From contig DATKCE010000053.1 of the NCBI GenBank assembly GCA_035513335.1, positions 25,793 through 89,792 of the forward strand: DNA of 64,000 bases, in the 5' to 3' direction. The notes beneath the pieces were generated by a model, which was given only the letters and a program-made list of their open reading frames with translations, did not search any database and had not been told where the DNA came from. Each line of letters begins with the position of its first letter. Within the stretch, counting starts at the first letter, position 1. Below, in pieces: positions 52,455-64,000 of this stretch. The translations under genes and the position numbers were made by a program. The stretch comes from Acidimicrobiia bacterium. GTDB taxonomy: Bacteria > Actinomycetota > Acidimicrobiia > Spongiisociales > ZC4RG35.

Positions 52455-52737
52455 GCACCGACCCGCCGGTGCATCGGAACAGACACCATGTTCCTCGACC
52501 GCGCCCCGGGCGCCAGCACTCCTGAGTCGATCGATCTCTGGCGCCAGTACAGCCCGGAGATCACGGAGTCACTGTCCGGCTGAGATCAGCCGCTTTCTGG
52601 GAATGGAGAGGTCGCCGAGGGCGGGATCGGGCTACTCGCCCGGTCCCGCCACCACGATCGGTGGCCTCTTCGAAAAGTATCTCTTTGGATACCCTGTTCC
52701 GGGCAAATCTGTCGGGGGCCGCTTGTACGTTCTCGGT

Positions 52738-53907
52738 ATGGGGAAGGGAACGACCTCGCTGAGGGTGATGCCGATCATCATCCCCCGCCTCGAGGATCCG
52801 GCGTCGGCCTCGGTCGACGAGCGCGACGAGCATCTGATGCTCCTGGAGGCGGCACGGCACCATCTCGACATCGAGTGGACCGAGACTCTGGCTGCCGCTG
52901 AGTCAGCAGGCGACCACGATGTCATGGGCTATCCCTCGACGGTGGCCTACCTCGAGCACCGGCTTCGCATGGCCGGCGGCCGGGCCCATCGGTATGTGAG
53001 GAACGCCAGGGCCGCCCTCGAACACGCCGCCACCTTCTCCGCCTGGAGACATCGTCAGATCTCCGGCGACGAGGCCGAGCTCATGTTCCGGGCCGCCGAG
53101 CGGATGCCCGACAAGTACCCGGAGGCCGAGAACGTCCTCCTGGAGTTGGTCGGCGACGGTTTCGACGAGACGAGGAGAGTGCTCGAGTACTGGCGCGACG
53201 ATGTCGACCTCCCTGGTGTGAAGCTCGATATCGAAGACCAGCTGGCCCGGCGCCACTTCGACCTGTCCAGGAAGGCCCACGGTATGGTCGCCGGTGAGTT
53301 CTCCCTGCCCTCGCTGGAAGGCGAGGCGCTGCTCACTGCTGTCGACACCCTGATGCCGCCCTCCGCCGAGGACGACGATAGATCCACCACCCAACGTCGG
53401 GCCGATGCCCTCGGCGACCTCGCCCGCGGCTTTCTCGAAGGCTCTGAGACTCCGATCGTCGGCGGTGAGCGACCTCACATGAACGTCCATGTCGATATCC
53501 CGGCGTTGCGAGGCGATGCCGGCGGTCTCCACGAGACCGAGGACGGGTTCGTGTTAGACCCCTTCGCGATGAGCCAGCTCGCATGCGCTGCCTCGGTTTC
53601 GAGAATCGTGTTCGGTCCGGGCTCCGAAGTCCTCGACGTCGGCCGCAAGACACGGGTGATCCCCGCCGGTCTCCGTCGTGCCGTCGTGGCTCGAGACCGC
53701 ACCTGCGTGCGTCGTGGCTGCGGTCGCTCGGCCAAATGGTGCGACGTCCACCATCTCGTTTCATGGGCAGAAGGTGGCGAGACCGTCATCGACAACCTCT
53801 GTCTCCTCTGCCGCTATCACCACACCCAACTCCACCTCGGGTTGATGACCCTCGAGGACCTGGAGATCACACCCCTCGCCGCAACGGCACGGCGACGAAG
53901 TACCTAG
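52738..53907 (+). CDS. DUF222 / HNH endonuclease family protein (REP13E12-like)
   Basis: C-terminal CVRRGCGRSAKWCDVHHLVSWAEGGETVIDNLCLLCRYHHTQLH HNH motif and a DUF222-like N-terminal region. Start uncertain (ORF opens at 52603). Confidence 0.82.
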   Translation: MGKGTTSLRVMPIIIPRLEDPASASVDERDEHLMLLEAARHHLDIEWTETLAAAESAGDHDVMGYPSTVAYLEHRLRMAGGRAHRYVRNARAALEHAATFSAWRHRQISGDEAELMFRAAERMPDKYPEAENVLLELVGDGFDETRRVLEYWRDDVDLPGVKLDIEDQLARRHFDLSRKAHGMVAGEFSLPSLEGEALLTAVDTLMPPSAEDDDRSTTQRRADALGDLARGFLEGSETPIVGGERPHMNVHVDIPALRGDAGGLHETEDGFVLDPFAMSQLACAASVSRIVFGPGSEVLDVGRKTRVIPAGLRRAVVARDRTCVRRGCGRSAKWCDVHHLVSWAEGGETVIDNLCLLCRYHHTQLHLGLMTLEDLEITPLAATARRRST

Positions 53908-55040: not shown

Positions 55041-58000
55041 TCAGCTACAACCCGTGGTGTCCCCGCAGGTGAGACAGACGTAGCAGCTGCCGTTGCGGAT
55101 GGTCATGTGGCCGCAGTTGGAGCAGGCCGGAGCGTCGCCCATGTTCTCCTTGAGAGCCACGTCGGCCACCGCAGTGCTCGCAGAGGTTTCCCCTCCGGCA
55201 CTGCGTGGTGCCTCCCCCAACGTCGCTTCGCTCCTCGGGGGTGAAACAGGCTCCCGTTCTGGCGCTCTCACGTCCTCATCGGGACCGTCGAGGAACTCGA
55301 CCGCCGACCTCACCGCGTCGACGTCGGAGTCGGCAGCGGCGTCGCTGAGGTCGAGTTGGACCCCGGCCTCCACCGCCAGCCCCTTGGGTGGCTCGGGAAG
55401 GTCGTTCTCCCGGTCGGGCGGCACCTGGGCCAGCTCATCGCGCTGCAGGTACTCCACCCCGAGAGAGCGGAACACGTAGTCCACGATGGAGTTGGCCATC
55501 TTGATGTTGGGATGGCCCTCCACCATGCCCCGGGGCTCGAAGGTCTGGAACGTGAAGGTGTCCACGAACTCCTCCAACGGCACTCCGTACTGGAGCCCCT
55601 TCGAGACCGCGATGGCGAAACAGGACAGGATCCCCTTCAGGGTCGCCCCTTCCTTGGCCAGGTCGATGAAGATCTCTCCGAGGGTTCCGTCCTGGTACTC
55701 GCCGGTGCGCAGGTAGACCTTGTGGCCGCCGACCCGGGCCTCCTGGTTGAAACCGGAGCGCCGGGCTGGAAGCAGGAACCGCGGCGGCTTCATCCCCTGG
55801 GCGTAGGCCTGGGTCGGGGAGATGCCCGCGGGCAGGTTGCCCCAGTGGATGGTCTTCTCCGCTTCCACGGCGGCGGTGATCGTCTCGTCCTCGTCCTCGT
55901 TGTCCTCGCCCTCGTCGGCGGTCGAGTTGAGTGGCTGGGCAGCCTTCGAACCGTCCCGGTAGAGGGCCATGGCCTTGAGGCCGAGCTCCCAGGAGAGGTG
56001 GTAGGCGCCTTCGATCTCGTCGACGGTCACCTCGTGGGGCATGTTGATCGTCTTCGAGATCGCGCCCGAGATGAACGGCTGGGCCGCCGCCATCATCTTG
56101 ATGTGGCCGTTGTGGTGGATGAACCGCGTGCCGTACTGGCCGTTCTTGTTGGCGGTGTCGAACACGGAGAGATGCTCGTCCCTGATGTGAGGCGCACCCT
56201 CGATGGTCTGCCGACCGCAGATGTGGTCGTTGGCCCCAGTGATCTGGGCCCTGGTGAATCCGAGCGCCCGGAGCAGGTCGAATTCCCAGCTGGTGTACTC
56301 GTCGACGGAGAAGCCGAGCCTCGCCATCGTCTCCTCGCCGAAGGTGAACACGTTGAAGGCGTGCTTCAGCTCGAACACCGCGGGCAGGGTCGCCTGCAGC
56401 TTGAGGATGTCTTCCTCGCTGAAGCCCTTCTCCAGCAGCGTGTCGGTGTTGATGTGGGGAGCACCTTCGATCGAGCTGGTCCCCACGATGTAGGTGACGA
56501 TGTCCGAGATCTCTGCCGGTGAGTACCCGAGACGGACCAGAGCCGGAGCCACCGACTGGTTGACGATCTTGAAGTAGCCGCCGCCGGCCAGCTTCTTGAA
56601 CTTCACCAGGGCGAAGTCGGGCTCGACACCGGTGGTGTCACAATCCATTAGAAGCCCGATGGTCCCTGTAGGAGCTAACACACTGGCCTGGGCGTTGCGG
56701 TAGCCATGCTTCTCGCCACGCTCCAGTGCCAGGTCCCATGAAGTCCGGGCCGCCTGGAGCAGGTCGTCGGGGCACGCGTCGGCATCGACGCCCATCACCT
56801 TGGTGGAGATGTTGTCGTAGTCGTTGCCGTCATAGGCAGCCACCTGGTGGTTGCGGATCACCCGCAGCATCGCATCCCGGTTCTCCTCGAACTTGGGGAA
56901 CGGCCCGACGACGTCGGCGATCTCGGCGGAGGTGGCATAGGAGTAGCCGGTCAGAACCGACGTGATGGCGCCGGCGATGGCTCGGCCTTCGTCGGAGTCG
57001 TAGGCGATGCCCTGACGCATCAGCAGCGACCCCAGGTTGGCGTACCCGAGACCGAGGGTCCGGTAGTCGTAGGAGCCCTGGGCGATCTCCTTGGAGGGGA
57101 AGTGGGCCATGGCCACCGAGATCTCGAGGACGATGGTCCAGAGCCGGATGGCGTGCTGGTAGCCCCCGATGTCGAACTCACCACTCGCGTCGTCGTAGAG
57201 CCTGACCAGGTTGATCGACGCCAGGTTGCAGGCGGTGTCGTCGAGGAACATGTACTCGGAACATGGGTTAGAGGCGTTGATCCGTCCTCCCGCCGGGCTG
57301 GTGTGCCACTCGTTGATGGTGGTGTCGAACTGGAGGCCGGGGTCGGCGCATGCCCAGGCGGCCTCGGCGATCTGGTTCCACAGCTCGCGGGCCTTGACCG
57401 TCCGGCGCACCGAGCCGTCGGTGCGGTTGATCAGATCCCAGTCGCCGTCCTCTTCGAACGCCTTGATGAAGTCGTAGGTGACCCGGACCGAGTTGTTGGA
57501 ATTCTGCCCGGACACGGTGGCGTAGGCCTCGCCGTTGAAGTCGGCGGGGAAGCCGCCGTGTTGGATGAGGACCTTGGCTTTCTCCTCCTCGATCTTCTTC
57601 CAGTCGACGAAGGTCTCGATGTCGGGGTGGTCGACGTCGAGGATCACCATCTTGGCGGCACGTCTGGTGGTGCCCCCCGACTTGATGGCGCCGGCGGCAC
57701 GGTCGCCGATCTTGAGGAACGACATGACCCCCGAAGACTTGCCTCCGCCGGAGAGCAGCTCGCCCTCGGCGCGAATGGCGGAGAAGTTGGACCCGGCGCC
57801 GGAGCCGAACTTGAAGATGCGGGCCTCACGAAGCCACAGATCCATGATGCCGCCCGGGTTGACCAGGTCGTCGCTGACCCCGTTGATGAAGCATGCGTGG
57901 GGGGCGGGGCGGCTGTACGAGTCGGGAGACTCGACCAGCTCTCCGGTCTCGTCGTCGACGAACCAGAAGCCCTGGGCCGGACCGGTGATGCCGTAGGCGT

Positions 58001-58451
58001 GATTGAGCCCGGTGTTGAACCACTGCGGAGAGTTGGGGGCGGCGATCTGGGCGGCGAGCATGTACTTGAGCTCATCTTCGAAGGCGTCGGCGTCGTCGGT
58101 GGAGGCGAAGTAGCCCTTCTTCTCGCCCCAATGACGCCAGGTCCCGGCGAGACGGTCGAAGACCTGCTTCGAGGAGCGTTCCGGCCCGGTGACAGGGTTG
58201 CCGTCCTCGTCGTCCATCTGGTTGCCCTCGGCGTCGAACTGGGGGACACCGGCCTTGCGGAAGTACTTGGACACCATGATGTCCGACGCCACCTGGCTCC
58301 AGTGGGCAGGGATCTCGGCGTCGGTCATCTCGAACACGACCGAACCGTCGGGGTTGGTGATGCGGGAATCTCGATGCGACCACTCGAACTGGCTGTAGGG
58401 GTCGGTACCGGCCTCCGTGAAGCGTCGGGTGATCCGCAGGCCTGTGCTCAT
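55041..58451 (-). CDS. nrdJ: Adenosylcobalamin-dependent (class II) ribonucleotide reductase
   Basis: N-terminus LRITRRFTEAGTDPYSQFEW..MVSKYFRKAG, catalytic core NPCSEY, and a C-terminal CxxC..CxxC tail (CSNCGHMTIRNGSCYVCLTCG). Start trimmed to ATG 58451, with GAGGAGGAG upstream. Confidence 0.95.
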   Translation of the reverse strand: MSTGLRITRRFTEAGTDPYSQFEWSHRDSRITNPDGSVVFEMTDAEIPAHWSQVASDIMVSKYFRKAGVPQFDAEGNQMDDEDGNPVTGPERSSKQVFDRLAGTWRHWGEKKGYFASTDDADAFEDELKYMLAAQIAAPNSPQWFNTGLNHAYGITGPAQGFWFVDDETGELVESPDSYSRPAPHACFINGVSDDLVNPGGIMDLWLREARIFKFGSGAGSNFSAIRAEGELLSGGGKSSGVMSFLKIGDRAAGAIKSGGTTRRAAKMVILDVDHPDIETFVDWKKIEEEKAKVLIQHGGFPADFNGEAYATVSGQNSNNSVRVTYDFIKAFEEDGDWDLINRTDGSVRRTVKARELWNQIAEAAWACADPGLQFDTTINEWHTSPAGGRINASNPCSEYMFLDDTACNLASINLVRLYDDASGEFDIGGYQHAIRLWTIVLEISVAMAHFPSKEIAQGSYDYRTLGLGYANLGSLLMRQGIAYDSDEGRAIAGAITSVLTGYSYATSAEIADVVGPFPKFEENRDAMLRVIRNHQVAAYDGNDYDNISTKVMGVDADACPDDLLQAARTSWDLALERGEKHGYRNAQASVLAPTGTIGLLMDCDTTGVEPDFALVKFKKLAGGGYFKIVNQSVAPALVRLGYSPAEISDIVTYIVGTSSIEGAPHINTDTLLEKGFSEEDILKLQATLPAVFELKHAFNVFTFGEETMARLGFSVDEYTSWEFDLLRALGFTRAQITGANDHICGRQTIEGAPHIRDEHLSVFDTANKNGQYGTRFIHHNGHIKMMAAAQPFISGAISKTINMPHEVTVDEIEGAYHLSWELGLKAMALYRDGSKAAQPLNSTADEGEDNEDEDETITAAVEAEKTIHWGNLPAGISPTQAYAQGMKPPRFLLPARRSGFNQEARVGGHKVYLRTGEYQDGTLGEIFIDLAKEGATLKGILSCFAIAVSKGLQYGVPLEEFVDTFTFQTFEPRGMVEGHPNIKMANSIVDYVFRSLGVEYLQRDELAQVPPDRENDLPEPPKGLAVEAGVQLDLSDAAADSDVDAVRSAVEFLDGPDEDVRAPEREPVSPPRSEATLGEAPRSAGGETSASTAVADVALKENMGDAPACSNCGHMTIRNGSCYVCLTCGDTTGCS
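55212..55239. repeat. 28-nt repeat copy B inside the nrdJ C-terminal linker
   Basis: CTCCCCCAACGTCGCTTCGCTCCTCGGG(G). 26/28 identical to 37623-37650. It encodes ..PPRSEATLGEA.. on the minus strand. Confidence 0.75.
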
Positions 58452-58523
58452 GTACTCCTCCTCGACCGGGGTCCGCCCCTCCCTACCGGGAAATGTCGGG
58501 ACGGTGTCCATTCTCAACTCCAA

Positions 58524-58539
58524 CCACAAGATGTGGTGG
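58524..58539 (-). promoter_or_regulatory. NrdR box (proximal)
   Basis: CCACAAGATGTGGTGG fits the NrdR-box consensus acaCwAtATaTwGtgt. It lies 73 nt upstream of the nrdJ start. Confidence 0.7.
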
Positions 58540-59282: not shown

Positions 59283-59384
59283 GTGCCGATTGTCCCAGGC
59301 CCATCCGCAACGCAGGGTCAACGGCTTCTCAAGGTTCCCTCAAGACGACGAGGTGATAACGACGACGACCGTAACCTCACACCC

Positions 59385-60068
59385 GTGCCACGGATCGTCC
59401 TCATCGAAGACGACGTCGAGATCAGACGGCTCGCCGCCGCCGCCCTCGCCGAGCAGGGCCACGACGTCGAGAGCGCCGACCGCGCCCTCGACGGGCTCGA
59501 GCTTGCGGTCAAGACCGACCCCGACCTGGTCCTGCTCGACCTCGGGCTTCCTGATGTCGACGGGACCGAGCTCCTGCGGATGATCCGCGCCGTGAGCCAG
59601 GTCCCGGTGATCGTGATCACCGCGCGCGGAGCCGACGAGACGGTGGTCGCCACGCTCGACTCGGGTGCCGACGACTATTTGGTGAAGCCCTTCTCGATGA
59701 CACAGCTCGAAGCCCGGGTGAGGGCCGTGCTTCGCCGCCGCGGCGGTGGGACCCAAGAGAGCCGCATCACCGTCGGTGATCTGGTGGTCGACGTCCCGGC
59801 CCGCACCGCCACCCTGGGCGATGAGACCCTCGACCTCAGCCCCAAGGAGTTCGACATTCTCCGGGTCCTCGTCGAGCGTGCCGGTGAGGTGTTGACCAAA
59901 CGCGAGCTGCTCGCCGAAGTGTGGCGGGAGCCATACGGCGGGTCCGACCACACCGTCGACGTACACATCTCCTGGCTGCGCAAGAAGCTCGGTGAGACCG
60001 CCCAGCAGCCCCGGTACATCCACACGGTCCATGGCGTCGGGGTGAAGCTGGTCGACCCCGGGCAGTGA
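59385..60068 (+). CDS. OmpR/PhoB family response regulator
   Basis: Receiver domain (IVLIEDD..LVLLDLGLPDVDG..) plus a winged-helix domain (LSPKEFDILRVL..TVDVHISWLRKKL). GTG 59385 within ORF 58725..60068. Confidence 0.9.
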   Translation: MPRIVLIEDDVEIRRLAAAALAEQGHDVESADRALDGLELAVKTDPDLVLLDLGLPDVDGTELLRMIRAVSQVPVIVITARGADETVVATLDSGADDYLVKPFSMTQLEARVRAVLRRRGGGTQESRITVGDLVVDVPARTATLGDETLDLSPKEFDILRVLVERAGEVLTKRELLAEVWREPYGGSDHTVDVHISWLRKKLGETAQQPRYIHTVHGVGVKLVDPGQ

Positions 60069-61327
60069 GACGCCGACTCGTCTTGCTCAGCCTGGCCACG
60101 ACGGTGCTCGTCGTGGTGGCGTTCGTCGTGCCGCTCGGGCTTCTGGTCCACAGACAGGCGGAAGACAGCGCCAAGGTGGCCGCCGAACGGGACGCCCGAT
60201 CGGTGGCGGGGCTGGTCGCCCTCGCCTCGGCTGTCGGCGATGGTCTCGATGACGTGGCCCCGGCCATCGGGGACCTTCCCGAAGGCACGATCGTCATCCT
60301 CGACGACGGGGTCCTCGGTGAGCCGCGTGGGGGGCAGGGCTCGCTGGCAGCGGTGGCGGCCGAATCCCAATCCACCGTGGCCGACGAGGTGGCAGGAGGC
60401 TGGGAGATCGCCCTCCCCGTGGTTGGAGCATCCGGTGTCGCCGTGGTCGACTCGTTCGTCACCAGCGCCGAGCTCACTTCGGGGGTGATGACGGCGTGGG
60501 CCCTGCTCGGCCTGCTCGCCCTGGCCCTCATCGGCCTGGCGGTTTGGATCGCAGACCGTCTCGGCGGGAGCCTCACCACTCCCATCGGCGACCTGGCCCG
60601 GTCGGCTCATCGGCTCGCAGAGGGCGACCTGAGCGCCCGGGTCGAGCCCACCGACCCCGAGGAGCTGCGAGAGACAGGGGAGGCGTTCAACTATCTCGCC
60701 GAGCGTCTCGGCCAGCTACTGGCGGAGGAGAGGGAGAGCGCTGCCGACCTCTCCCATCGCCTGCGCACGCCCCTCACCTCATTGCGTCTCCCGGCCGAGG
60801 CGCTGGGCGACGAGGCGGAGCGGAAGGCGATGGTCGGCCAGGTCGACAGGCTCGAGCACGCCATGAACCAGGTGATCGACCTGGCACGGTCGAGAGCGGC
60901 GCGAGAGCCCGGAGAGTGTGACCTCGACCGGGTGGTGTCTGATCGGGTCACCTTCTGGAGCGTCCTCGCCGAAGAGCAGAACCGCGATCTGACCCCTACC
61001 CTGGCTGCCGCTGGGGCCCGGGTTCCGTTGAGCTCCGAAGACTTGGGAGTGATGGTCGACACGATCGTCGGAAACGTCTTCGCCCACACCCCGCCCGGCA
61101 CGGCCTTCACCGTCCGCACCGGGGCGACTCCCGCTCCATGGTTCGAAGTGGCCGATCGAGGGCCGGGATTCGGAGGACGGCCGCAGGTCGAACGCGGGGT
61201 CAGCGGGTCGGGCTCGACCGGTCTCGGTCTTGACATCGTGCGCAAGACCGTCTCGGCAGCCGGGGGAACCTTCGACGCACACGACCGCCCCGGGGGAGGG
61301 GCGGTCGTGTGCGTCAGTTTCGGCTGA
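60065..61327 (+). CDS. Sensor histidine kinase (2 TM, HAMP, HisKA, HATPase_c)
   Basis: H-box DLSHRLRTPLTSL. N/G boxes (VGNVFAHTP.., DRGPGF, GSTGLGLDIV). 4-nt overlap with the regulator gene. Confidence 0.9.
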   Translation: MRRRLVLLSLATTVLVVVAFVVPLGLLVHRQAEDSAKVAAERDARSVAGLVALASAVGDGLDDVAPAIGDLPEGTIVILDDGVLGEPRGGQGSLAAVAAESQSTVADEVAGGWEIALPVVGASGVAVVDSFVTSAELTSGVMTAWALLGLLALALIGLAVWIADRLGGSLTTPIGDLARSAHRLAEGDLSARVEPTDPEELRETGEAFNYLAERLGQLLAEERESAADLSHRLRTPLTSLRLPAEALGDEAERKAMVGQVDRLEHAMNQVIDLARSRAAREPGECDLDRVVSDRVTFWSVLAEEQNRDLTPTLAAAGARVPLSSEDLGVMVDTIVGNVFAHTPPGTAFTVRTGATPAPWFEVADRGPGFGGRPQVERGVSGSGSTGLGLDIVRKTVSAAGGTFDAHDRPGGGAVVCVSFG

Positions 61328-62070: not shown

Positions 62071-62706
62071 TCAGCGGGCGGGGTGATCCCAAGCGTCCTC
62101 CGGCCGACCGGTGTCGATGCTCCAGCGGGGGAGGAAGAACTGGACGATGGGGCCGATGAGGAGGGCAAAAGCGATGGTCCCGACACCGAAAGTCCCACCC
62201 ATCAGGAATCCCGTGATCAGCACCACGATCTCGAGACCCCATCGGGTGACCCGGATCGACGGGCCGCGCCCGGCGATTGCGGTCATCAGGCCATCGCGTG
62301 GCCCTGGCCCGAGATTCGCTCCGATGTACATGCCGGATGCCAAGCCGATGAGGATGATCCCTGCTGTCAGCATGACCGAGGCGAGCCATGTGTTGGGTGG
62401 GCGCGGGATGACCAGGACGCCGAGGTCGATGACCACTCCGATGATGACGGCATTGAGAATGGTGCCGATCCCGTAGCGCTCCCGCAGCGGCAGCCACAGC
62501 AGGAGGACGACGAATGAGATGATGATCGACCAGATTCCCACGGTGAGGCCGAACTGTTCGGTGAGCCCCTGATGGAGGACGTCCCAGGGGGGCAGTCCCA
62601 ACCCGGACTGCAACACCAGAGCGATGCCCAGCCCGAACAGCACCAGCCCGACGTTGAGTTGGATCATGCGGCGGCGCAGGTTCTTGCCGCTGACGGAGAT
62701 GAACAT
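62071..62706 (-). CDS. YczE/YitT-like membrane protein
   Basis: 211-aa 5-6 TM protein (LNVGLVLFGLGIALVLQSGLGLPPWDVLHQGL..). Confidence 0.65.
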   Translation of the reverse strand: MFISVSGKNLRRRMIQLNVGLVLFGLGIALVLQSGLGLPPWDVLHQGLTEQFGLTVGIWSIIISFVVLLLWLPLRERYGIGTILNAVIIGVVIDLGVLVIPRPPNTWLASVMLTAGIILIGLASGMYIGANLGPGPRDGLMTAIAGRGPSIRVTRWGLEIVVLITGFLMGGTFGVGTIAFALLIGPIVQFFLPRWSIDTGRPEDAWDHPAR

Positions 62707-62767
62707 GGCCGCGGCACGCTAATGCTTCGCGCCAGAATGACTCCCACCCAGACAGGAAGCGCGACGC

Positions 62768-63442
62768 ATGACATTGGACTTCACCGTCACCGACACCGCC
62801 GGTAGGCCATGGACTCTCTCCGACCATCTCGATGCCGGGGTGGTGCTCACCTTCCACAGAGGGGACTTCTGAAGCTATTGCCACGGCCAGTTGGCCGTCA
62901 TGGCTGACCGGCATGGGGAGCTTCTCGACCGCGGAGGCCGCGTGTTCGGGATCAGCGCAGACACCCATGCGATGAACGCGGCGGTCGTGGAGAAGCTGGC
63001 CCTCCCGTTCCCGATCCTCTCCGACCCGGACCGCGACAGGGCGATCACCCCGCTCGGGTTCGCCGATGAGAAGGACCCGCGAGAGTTAGCCCGCAACGGT
63101 GCACTCCTCATCACGCCTGACGCCGAGGTGGTCTGGTCGGTGGTGGGGCGTGATTACGCCGATCGGCCCGAAGAGGATGAGCTTCTCGACCGTCTGAGCG
63201 CGCTCGACATTCCACCGACCACTCAACCGGAGCCAGAGATCGGTGAGGCGGAGCCGGGGGAAAGGGCGATGCCACTCGACGGCCTGGCCAACTATCTCCG
63301 TGGCGCGAAGTTCGCCGCTCTTGCGGTCAGGAGCCGTCACCGTGCTCTGAGCCCGGAGTTCGCCGACGATGTCAAGAAGTACATCCAGATGGTCGACCGC
63401 TATCTCGATGCATTGACCCGCGTGGAGGAGCGCAGGGAATAA
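62768..63442 (+). CDS. Peroxiredoxin-like (AhpC/TSA-redoxin family) protein with an in-frame TGA at the redox-active Cys position: candidate selenoprotein (alternatively a nonsense pseudogene)
   Basis: A single frame from ATG 62768 gives ..VVLTFHRGDF-TGA(62870)-SYCHGQL..GISADTH..LPFPILSDPDRD.. . The ORF track reports only the truncated 62891..63442, which lacks the active site. AGGAAG SD upstream. Confidence 0.55.
62880..62904 (+). promoter_or_regulatory. SECIS-like hairpin downstream of the in-frame UGA
   Basis: GCC-ACGGCC-AGUU-GGCCGU-CAU-GGC. A 6-bp GC-rich upper stem and a GU-containing apical loop that begins 16 nt after the UGA. Confidence 0.45.
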
Positions 63443-63451
63443 CCTCGCCCC

Positions 63452-64000
63452 ATGGAGGGGCCGAAGGTCCAGTTGTTCGTCACCTGCCTGATCGATTCGC
63501 TCGCTCCCGAGGTCGGTCGGGCCACGGTGGACGCGCTCGAGAAGGCCGAGTGTGTCGTCGAGTTTCCTCCCGAGCAGGGATGTTGCGGCCAGCCTGCCTT
63601 CAACGTTGGGCTCGTCGACGATGCCCGGGTGATGGCCGCCCACACCCTCGACGTGCTCGACGCCACCGAGGGCCCGGTCGTGATCCCTTCGGGCTCATGC
63701 GCGGCGATGATCGCCCGCCATTACCAGGGCCTCTTCGACACCACCGACCGGACCGAACAGGCCGGCCGGGTCGCGTCGAGGATCCGGGAGCTGACCGCCT
63801 TCCTCGTCGATGAGCTCGAAGCCGAGGTCACCGCCTCCTGCGATGGCTGCACCATCGCCTACCACCACTCCTGTCACGGGCTGCGTGAGATGGGTCTGGA
63901 CCACCAGGCAGGTCGGCTCCTTGAGGACGTCGAGCGCGCCGACCTCGACGGGGCGCGTGACTGCTGCGGGTTCGGGGGCCTCTTCTCTGTGGAGATGCCT
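63452..64000 (+). CDS. lutA: LutA/LldE-like (Fe-S)-binding CCG-domain protein, 3'-truncated by the window end
   Basis: KVQLFVTCLIDSLAPEVGRATVDALEKAECVVEFPPEQGCCGQPAFN.. and a second CCG motif (DCCGFGG). Open to base 64000. Confidence 0.8.
   Translation, partial: MEGPKVQLFVTCLIDSLAPEVGRATVDALEKAECVVEFPPEQGCCGQPAFNVGLVDDARVMAAHTLDVLDATEGPVVIPSGSCAAMIARHYQGLFDTTDRTEQAGRVASRIRELTAFLVDELEAEVTASCDGCTIAYHHSCHGLREMGLDHQAGRLLEDVERADLDGARDCCGFGGLFSVEMP

Follow-up and report, generated by a model that had tools for sequence, protein, structure and literature searches.

A conserved in-frame UGA with an adjoining hairpin points to a Prx-like UxxC selenoprotein encoded ahead of lutABC in Acidimicrobiia

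The window analysed here, a stretch of 64,000 nucleotides from an Acidimicrobiia bacterium with a GC content of 65.5%, carries close to its 3′ end a frame that opens at ATG 62768, crosses an in-frame TGA at codon 35 and ends at TAA 63440-63442 (Table 1). In the Pfam search, for which a Cys placeholder was put at the TGA, the AhpC/TSA match spans this codon with 73.5 bits over residues 4-123, against a cut-off of 26. ORF listing under standard rules gives a 183-aa fragment only (62891-63442). The same headless call had been made in a sequence-only reading of this DNA and was reproduced; the coordinates given in that reading, its peptide strings at both ends of the gene and its hairpin position all match the sequence. 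It had presented the gene as a candidate selenoprotein, a proposal which now gains support from the conserved TGA, from the hairpin, from the contrast with Cys-type relatives and from the alignment of the redox motif to CxxC proteins.

Table 1. Features at and around the candidate selenoprotein gene (positions are those of the window)
Feature	Position	Strand	Remarks
Divergent 211-aa membrane protein	62071-62706	-	Upstream, on the opposite strand in 23/26 loci
Shine-Dalgarno-like AGGAAG	62754-62759	+	Read from the sequence; 8 nt before ATG 62768
Complete candidate selenoprotein gene	62768-63442	+	224 codons including the putative Sec35, then stop TAA 63440-63442
AhpC/TSA (thioredoxin-fold) domain, residues 4-123	62777-63136	+	Pfam PF00578, E = 1.9e-20
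UGA predicted to be read as Sec (U35), first position of U-S-Y-C	62870-62872	+	TGA in 27/27
Cys38, predicted second redox residue of U-S-Y-C	62879-62881	+	
SECIS-like hairpin	62879-62905	+	RNAalifold consensus and synonymous-site conservation
C-terminal extension, about residues 147-224: Pro-rich linker, then two-helix hairpin	63206-63439	+	Conserved in Sec-type and Cys-type relatives
lutA-like gene (CCG domain)	63452-64000	+	Pfam PF02754, E = 1.4e-17; runs off the window end

A scan of species-representative genomes, with tblastn matches covering query residues 1-223 or nearly so, provided 26 further loci, mostly from Acidimicrobiia MAGs. In every one of them lutA lies directly downstream on the same strand, at a spacing of 13-19 nt in 22; in the window the lutA-like gene starts 9 nt after the stop of the candidate gene, and 183 LutA residues are contained in it. 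Wherever the sequence extends far enough past lutA, LutB and LutC are encoded (LutC in 23 of 23), and so is a hydrolase in 22 of 23. The gene heads a lutABC (lactate-utilisation) operon in all the loci where the sequence is long enough. The complete order can be read on a 294-kb metagenome contig (L034), namely Sec-Prx-like, LutA (CCG), LutB (LUD + 4Fe-4S), LutC (LUD) and alpha/beta hydrolase, with overlapping stops and starts between the operon genes. Our literature search found no paper joining LutABC and a selenoprotein, and the invariant operon Sec-Prx-like, LutA, LutB, LutC, hydrolase appears to be undescribed so far. A scan of the 61-nt divergent intergenic region detected no sigma-70 promoter, and a terminator-like match inside lutA was discarded as being at chance level.

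Several observations concern the wider neighbourhood. On the L034 contig, the record for the counterpart of the 211-aa membrane protein gives PF19700 DUF6198, but no Pfam match at E <= 0.001 was obtained for the copy in the window. A class II ribonucleotide reductase gene is found nearby in the loci, the window copy being at 55041-58529 on the minus strand, and a DUF222/HNH endonuclease gene (52603-53907, plus strand) adjoins it in the window; the same adjacency occurs on an unrelated metagenome contig (L034:882-1643). Genes for an OmpR-type response regulator and a HAMP histidine kinase, joined by an overlapping GTGA stop/start, occupy 59370-61327 on the plus strand, and the pair is also found upstream of the candidate gene in L001, L003, L004, L006, L008, L018, L021 and L034. 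Six loci (L011, L012, L014, L016, L018 and L022) are labelled Gammaproteobacteria, Acidobacteria, Boseongicola, Gemmatimonadetes or just ‘bacterium’. They display, within the reach of their contigs, the Acidimicrobiia-type synteny of ribonucleotide reductase, membrane protein, Sec-Prx-like gene and lutABC, and their ribonucleotide reductases are 59-84% identical; their bins or labels are probably wrong.

Comparison of the 27 sequences (the window and its 26 species-level relatives, at 55-93% protein identity) shows TGA at codon 35 in all of them, within a nearly invariant context, HRGDF-U-(S/T)YCHGQLA. Such agreement greatly exceeds what chance would produce. The 224-codon frame is collinear in the 26 relatives, with no indel and no other in-frame TGA. 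Variability at codon positions 1, 2 and 3 is 0.12, 0.08 and 0.39 for codons 2-34, and 0.19, 0.14 and 0.41 for the codons downstream of the UGA. From their values, the upstream codons behave as coding sequence under purifying selection, and judged by this substitution pattern the first 34 codons are translated. In each of the 26 relatives, the upstream start is preceded at 5-12 nt by a purine-rich stretch of the AGGA/GGAG type, so that all 27 genes have a Shine-Dalgarno-like sequence there. There is no reassignment of the genetic code, because UGA is the ordinary stop of six of the seven verified neighbouring genes and because the family has no other in-frame TGA. As a side observation, the family's own stop is TAA in 25 of 27 (TAG and TGA once each), as compared with TGA in six of the seven neighbours; this preference could reflect either avoidance of a UGA stop in an mRNA where UGA is recoded or a constraint that the ribosome-binding site of lutA, 9-19 nt downstream, imposes. 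A GC3-based scan for further genes with TGA read-through in the window was uninformative at 65.5% GC: it missed even the UGA at 62870, and its candidates resemble off-frame noise.

One consequence of the in-frame UGA can be seen in the databases. A search of 5.8 billion proteins found 242 homologues. Among the best 120 of the 242, 119 are 177-190 aa long and one has 166 aa; their starts coincide with the Met past the TGA or lie shortly after it, and not one includes the active site. Gene calls are truncated in all the database entries examined (i.e. these best 120 of 242), and this truncation appears to be undescribed so far.

The codon is followed by a hairpin, for which the 27 sequences could be used jointly. 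The consensus computed with RNAalifold independently returned the structure proposed in the sequence-only reading (GCC-ACGGCC-AGUU-GGCCGU-CAU-GGC, 62880-62904), with one extra base pair that extends it to 62879-62905. It consists of a lower stem of 4 bp, an upper stem of 6 bp (ACGGCC/GGCCGU, 62883-62888 with 62893-62898), an apical loop AGUU (62889-62892) and a 3-nt bulge CAU on the 3′ side (62899-62901), i.e. 10 bp overall; folded alone, it has an energy of -14.7 kcal/mol. In bacterial SECIS elements the distance from UGA to loop is reportedly 16-37 nt, the loop 3-14 nt long with a G within its first two nucleotides, and the upper stem at least 4 bp long. Here, the upper stem begins 10 nt past the UGA, the loop has a G at its second position, and the 16 nt from UGA to apical loop were measured as first proposed; together with the AGUU loop and the 6-bp upper stem, this geometry is that of a SECIS-like stem-loop.

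The same segment stands out by its lack of variation. CACGGCCAGTTGGC (62882-62895) is a run of 14 nt identical in 27 of 27 sequences, the longest such run in the gene; the second longest is TTCTGA, and all the others are 3 nt or less. Across species down to 55% protein identity, the 16-nt upper stem-loop is almost invariant. Codons 39-43 (CAC GGC CAG TTG GCC) have a normalised synonymous entropy of 0.023, the lowest among 161 five-codon windows, the gene mean being 0.65, and they contain an invariant rare TTG Leu codon; at the other invariant Gly, Leu and Arg residues of the gene, codon entropy is about 1.9-2.4 bits. In the consensus hairpin 96.3% of the cells of the alignment are paired, as compared with 53% at most in controls with shifted partners. 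Pairing is kept in all 22 one-sided changes, most of which replace C by U and produce a G-U pair, and a covariation test on the 27 sequences found no two-sided compensatory change. Covariation is lacking because the sequence hardly varies, and what supports the structure is therefore the suppression of synonymous variation and not covariation. Within the window and the loci searched, the core GGCCAGTTGGCC is confined to this gene family: two matches with one mismatch were found elsewhere, neither of which follows a TGA.

Folding of individual sequences gave a less uniform picture. The fold proposed for the window stood as the consensus of the family, but when 61-62 nt of the window are folded freely by themselves, another structure is favoured (-27.5 versus -15.2 kcal/mol). 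This alternative, at 62871-62924, has an outer stem GAAGCU/AGCUUC and an inner hairpin GUUGGCC-GUCAU-GGCUGAC; its loop starts with GU, 24 nt past the UGA, and would also suit SECIS geometry. It is specific to the window, as its 3′ half is not conserved in the relatives. The conserved upper stem forms in 22 of 27 free folds of 72 nt, and in 26 of 27, window included, when the 5′ nucleotides are masked that would lie under a ribosome decoding the UGA. An Rfam scan of the window at gathering thresholds detected neither a SECIS nor a tRNA-Sec match. With the E. coli fdhF-type SECIS, the hairpin at 62879-62905 shares a stem-loop located directly 3′ of the UGA in the coding region, an upper stem-loop at about 10-11 nt from the UGA and a small GU-containing loop; it differs by its sequence, its 4-nt AGUU loop and its 3′-side bulge, and none of the Rfam models matches it.

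Relatives in which the UGA is replaced by a Cys codon provide a natural control. An exhaustive search of representatives found full-length Cys-type proteins at 31-44% identity which have the whole architecture in common with the Sec-type ones; in at least 10 of them the motif is RGDW-C-xYC, its Cys being aligned to the UGA. For seven the DNA was compared: the first Cys is encoded by TGC or TGT in 7 of 7, at the place where the initial reading had put it, and the motif is C-x-(Y/F/W)-C-(N/Q)-(G/C)-Q-L. Their Gly and Leu codons vary (GGG, GGC or GGT, and CTC or CTG), TTG is never used, and none of the seven has a hairpin at the equivalent site. Thus, the hairpin travels with the UGA: it is present in 27 of 27 genes having UGA and absent from 7 of 7 having Cys. 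The sequence-only reading had suggested inspecting orthologues in this way, and a TGA conserved together with the hairpin, one of the outcomes it named, was found in 26 of 26 relatives; its other proposed checks at the sequence level were favourable as well. The neighbours known from the window were found beside none of the seven Cys-type genes, two of which have contexts of informative length; lutABC is lacking in both of these.

As regards the protein, alignment to solved structures places U35 and C38 on both Cys residues of the WCxxC motif of ResA. With respect to BCP/PrxQ, U35 is aligned to the conserved Thr/Ser of TxxC, whereas the peroxidatic Cys is matched by C38. These alignments indicate a thioredoxin-type UxxC motif with Sec in the nucleophilic position, and not a TxxU motif, in agreement with the UxxC assignment first proposed; U-S/T-Y-C is found in 27 of 27. 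By its Pfam domain and its Sec motif, the predicted protein belongs to an already known class, ‘Prx-like thiol:disulfide oxidoreductase, PF00578, UxxC’. The published reference of the class is WP_010940744.1, and membership is assigned here by domain and motif. That ‘Prx-like, PF00578, UxxC’ proteins are an established class, as had been assumed, agrees with the selenoproteomes of the Sargasso Sea and GOS and with reviews. With Prx-like 1 of these datasets the protein shares PF00578, UxxC in place of the TxxC of Prx, and the grounds of prediction, i.e. a Sec/Cys pair and a SECIS-like hairpin; in contrast to it, the present clade has a C-terminal linker and helical hairpin of about 78 residues and a fixed position at the head of lutABC.

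Other assignments were considered and rejected. The motif H-R-G-D-F-U-S-Y-C is not that of a true peroxiredoxin (PxxxTxxC), since Thr is replaced by Sec and Pro is absent. No NCBIfam model reaches its own cut-off: with the PrxQ, PrxU, AhpC and BCP models 26-32 bits are obtained where 140-272 would be required, and the best match, SelL-related redox protein NF040769, scores 39.7 bits against 120. SelL-related proteins likewise combine a Sec/Cys redox motif with a Prx-like fold, and by score the protein is not one of them. Peroxiredoxin selenoproteins (TxxU, PrxU) carry Sec at the peroxidatic position, whereas here it would be three residues earlier. ResA/TlpA proteins are the best PDB sequence matches for the N-terminal half and match its fold as well. 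However, ResA is anchored in the membrane, acts in cytochrome maturation outside the cytoplasm and has Cys instead of Sec, whereas the candidate selenoprotein has no evident signal or anchor and its similarity to ResA is limited to E ~ 3e-4.

For structure prediction we used the closest of the Cys-type relatives, P0130. Its AlphaFold2 model (pLDDT 97.7, pTM 0.93) comprises a thioredoxin/Prx fold, from which an extended linker leads to two long helices at the C terminus (170-190 and 192-216). Its Foldseek matches to AhpE, BCP and ResA are limited to about 150 residues, with TM scores of up to 0.89 (target-normalised); BCP/PrxQ and AhpE are the best structural matches (0.88-0.89 for AhpE, target-normalised), C38 corresponding to the position of their peroxidatic Cys. 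The helical hairpin has no PDB match, by Foldseek or by sequence; the extension lies outside every whole-protein Pfam match and, searched alone, has no NCBIfam match. This extension, already noted as unassigned on first reading, is real and conserved in both Sec-type and Cys-type proteins, and it appears to be undescribed so far.

If UGA is decoded as Sec, the host should possess the corresponding machinery. Across 457 kb, made up of the window and the 26 loci, we found no selA, selB, selD or tRNA-Sec gene; tblastn with E. coli SelA, SelB and SelD probes gave no match in this set. ARAGORN reported a 96-nt ‘tRNA-???’ with a 4-base anticodon at L003:17906-18001, probably a false positive since Rfam finds neither tRNA nor tRNA-Sec in L003:17700-18200 even at E <= 1. 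The trait is documented in the class itself: Ilumatobacter coccineus, I. nonamiensis and Ca. Microthrix parvicella, all cultured and positive for SelD, SelA and SelB, have 15, 10 and 7 selenoproteins, respectively (Peng et al. 2016, PMC5029168, Tables S1, S2), and NCBI taxonomy places Ilumatobacter and Microthrix in Acidimicrobiia. In addition, selABCD was reported for all Actinomarina genomes (2026 preprint). Given the published Sec trait of its cultured members, the lineage is selenoprotein-rich and not an unexpected host; the earlier statement that high-GC actinobacteria seldom use Sec does not apply to it.

We consider it very likely that the UGA at 62870 is read through by the SelB/Sec pathway with the help of the hairpin, giving a 224-residue UxxC protein co-transcribed with lutABC. 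That the codon is translated under the control of the hairpin at 62879-62905 is the part in which we place high confidence; for the identity of the inserted residue, predicted to be Sec from the motif and the hairpin, our confidence is slightly lower, because Sec machinery was not seen in the window and the loci. In the mechanism that we propose, translation would start at ATG 62768, and the hairpin would act at UGA 62870-62872 as a bacterial SECIS recruiting SelB-GTP-Sec-tRNA(Sec). Insertion of Sec at codon 35 would produce a 224-residue, thioredoxin-fold, Prx-like thiol:disulfide oxidoreductase with U35-x-x-C38 as its redox centre. U35 and C38 would cycle between the selenol/thiol and the selenylsulfide forms, Sec acting as the nucleophilic first Cys of CxxC, and the gene would be co-transcribed as the first of the lutABC operon.

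Other explanations of the in-frame TGA have to be weighed. It might be a nonsense mutation, the sign of a pseudogene or a base-call error in the assembly, which was the alternative put forward in the earlier reading, where two frameshifted genes were said to lie within 10 kb. This caveat about damaged genes nearby would favour a lesion, but it was not reproduced over 52.6-64 kb: eight neighbouring frames are open there, five of them with Pfam domains, and for six an alignment to relatives was obtained, which is full-length in five cases and covers residues 6-232 of 232 in the response regulator. Moreover, the frame is intact on either side of the TGA, the same codon is TGA in 26 independent assemblies from different species, and more than 100 truncated metagenome clusters start just past it. 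Conservation in 27 of 27 and purifying selection on the upstream codons exclude this possibility for all practical purposes. Very improbable too is that the UGA is a true stop, separating a 34-residue peptide from a protein of about 180 residues, with the hairpin as a regulatory or re-initiation element. Gene callers do predict the product of 177-183 aa, and ATG 62900 sits in the bulge of the hairpin. However, Met45 is encoded by ATG in only 20 of 27 sequences, three others having CTG or TTG and the remaining four ATC, TCG or ACG, and this internal Met is not preceded by a Shine-Dalgarno-like sequence. The thioredoxin fold would be interrupted at the active site, in a protein that is continuous in Cys-type relatives, and the 34 codons ahead of the UGA, which hold conserved strands and the RGDF motif, are under selection at the protein level.

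Finally, the hairpin might direct the insertion of a residue other than Sec, either Cys by a tRNA-Sec-like tRNA or Trp/Cys by near-cognate read-through. Sec codons are said to be recoded to Cys in some bacteria, Cys is functionally tolerated at codon 35 as the Cys-type relatives indicate, and Sec machinery was not directly observed in the window and the loci. We nevertheless regard this as improbable: a strict UGA and a hairpin would be a costly way to obtain Cys when TGC or TGT serves in the relatives, the geometry of the hairpin matches a SECIS of the SelB type, and the class has cultured members with SelA, SelB, SelD and many selenoproteins.

As to function, insertion of Sec would place a selenoprotein first in the lutABC operon and, from gene order only, it is probably a redox partner or a protector of the Fe-S/CCG LutABC complex. 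A more specific proposal, which we think unlikely, is that it is a dedicated component of LutABC: the HdrB-like CCG clusters of LutA would reduce the U35-C38 selenylsulfide, lactate oxidation would be coupled to disulfide or peroxide reduction, and the C-terminal hairpin would serve for docking. If this were true, LutABC would gain a protein electron acceptor. Whatever the exact role, the results correct a systematic annotation error, in a case where no NCBIfam model would rescue the full-length protein. The hairpin would represent an unusually clean natural SECIS, with a 14-nt invariant run across species as little as 55% identical. A well-supported selenoprotein is added to Acidimicrobiia, a class abundant in soil and marine environments, and its invariant place before lutABC is a concrete, testable hint on the redox partner of a widespread lactate-oxidising complex.
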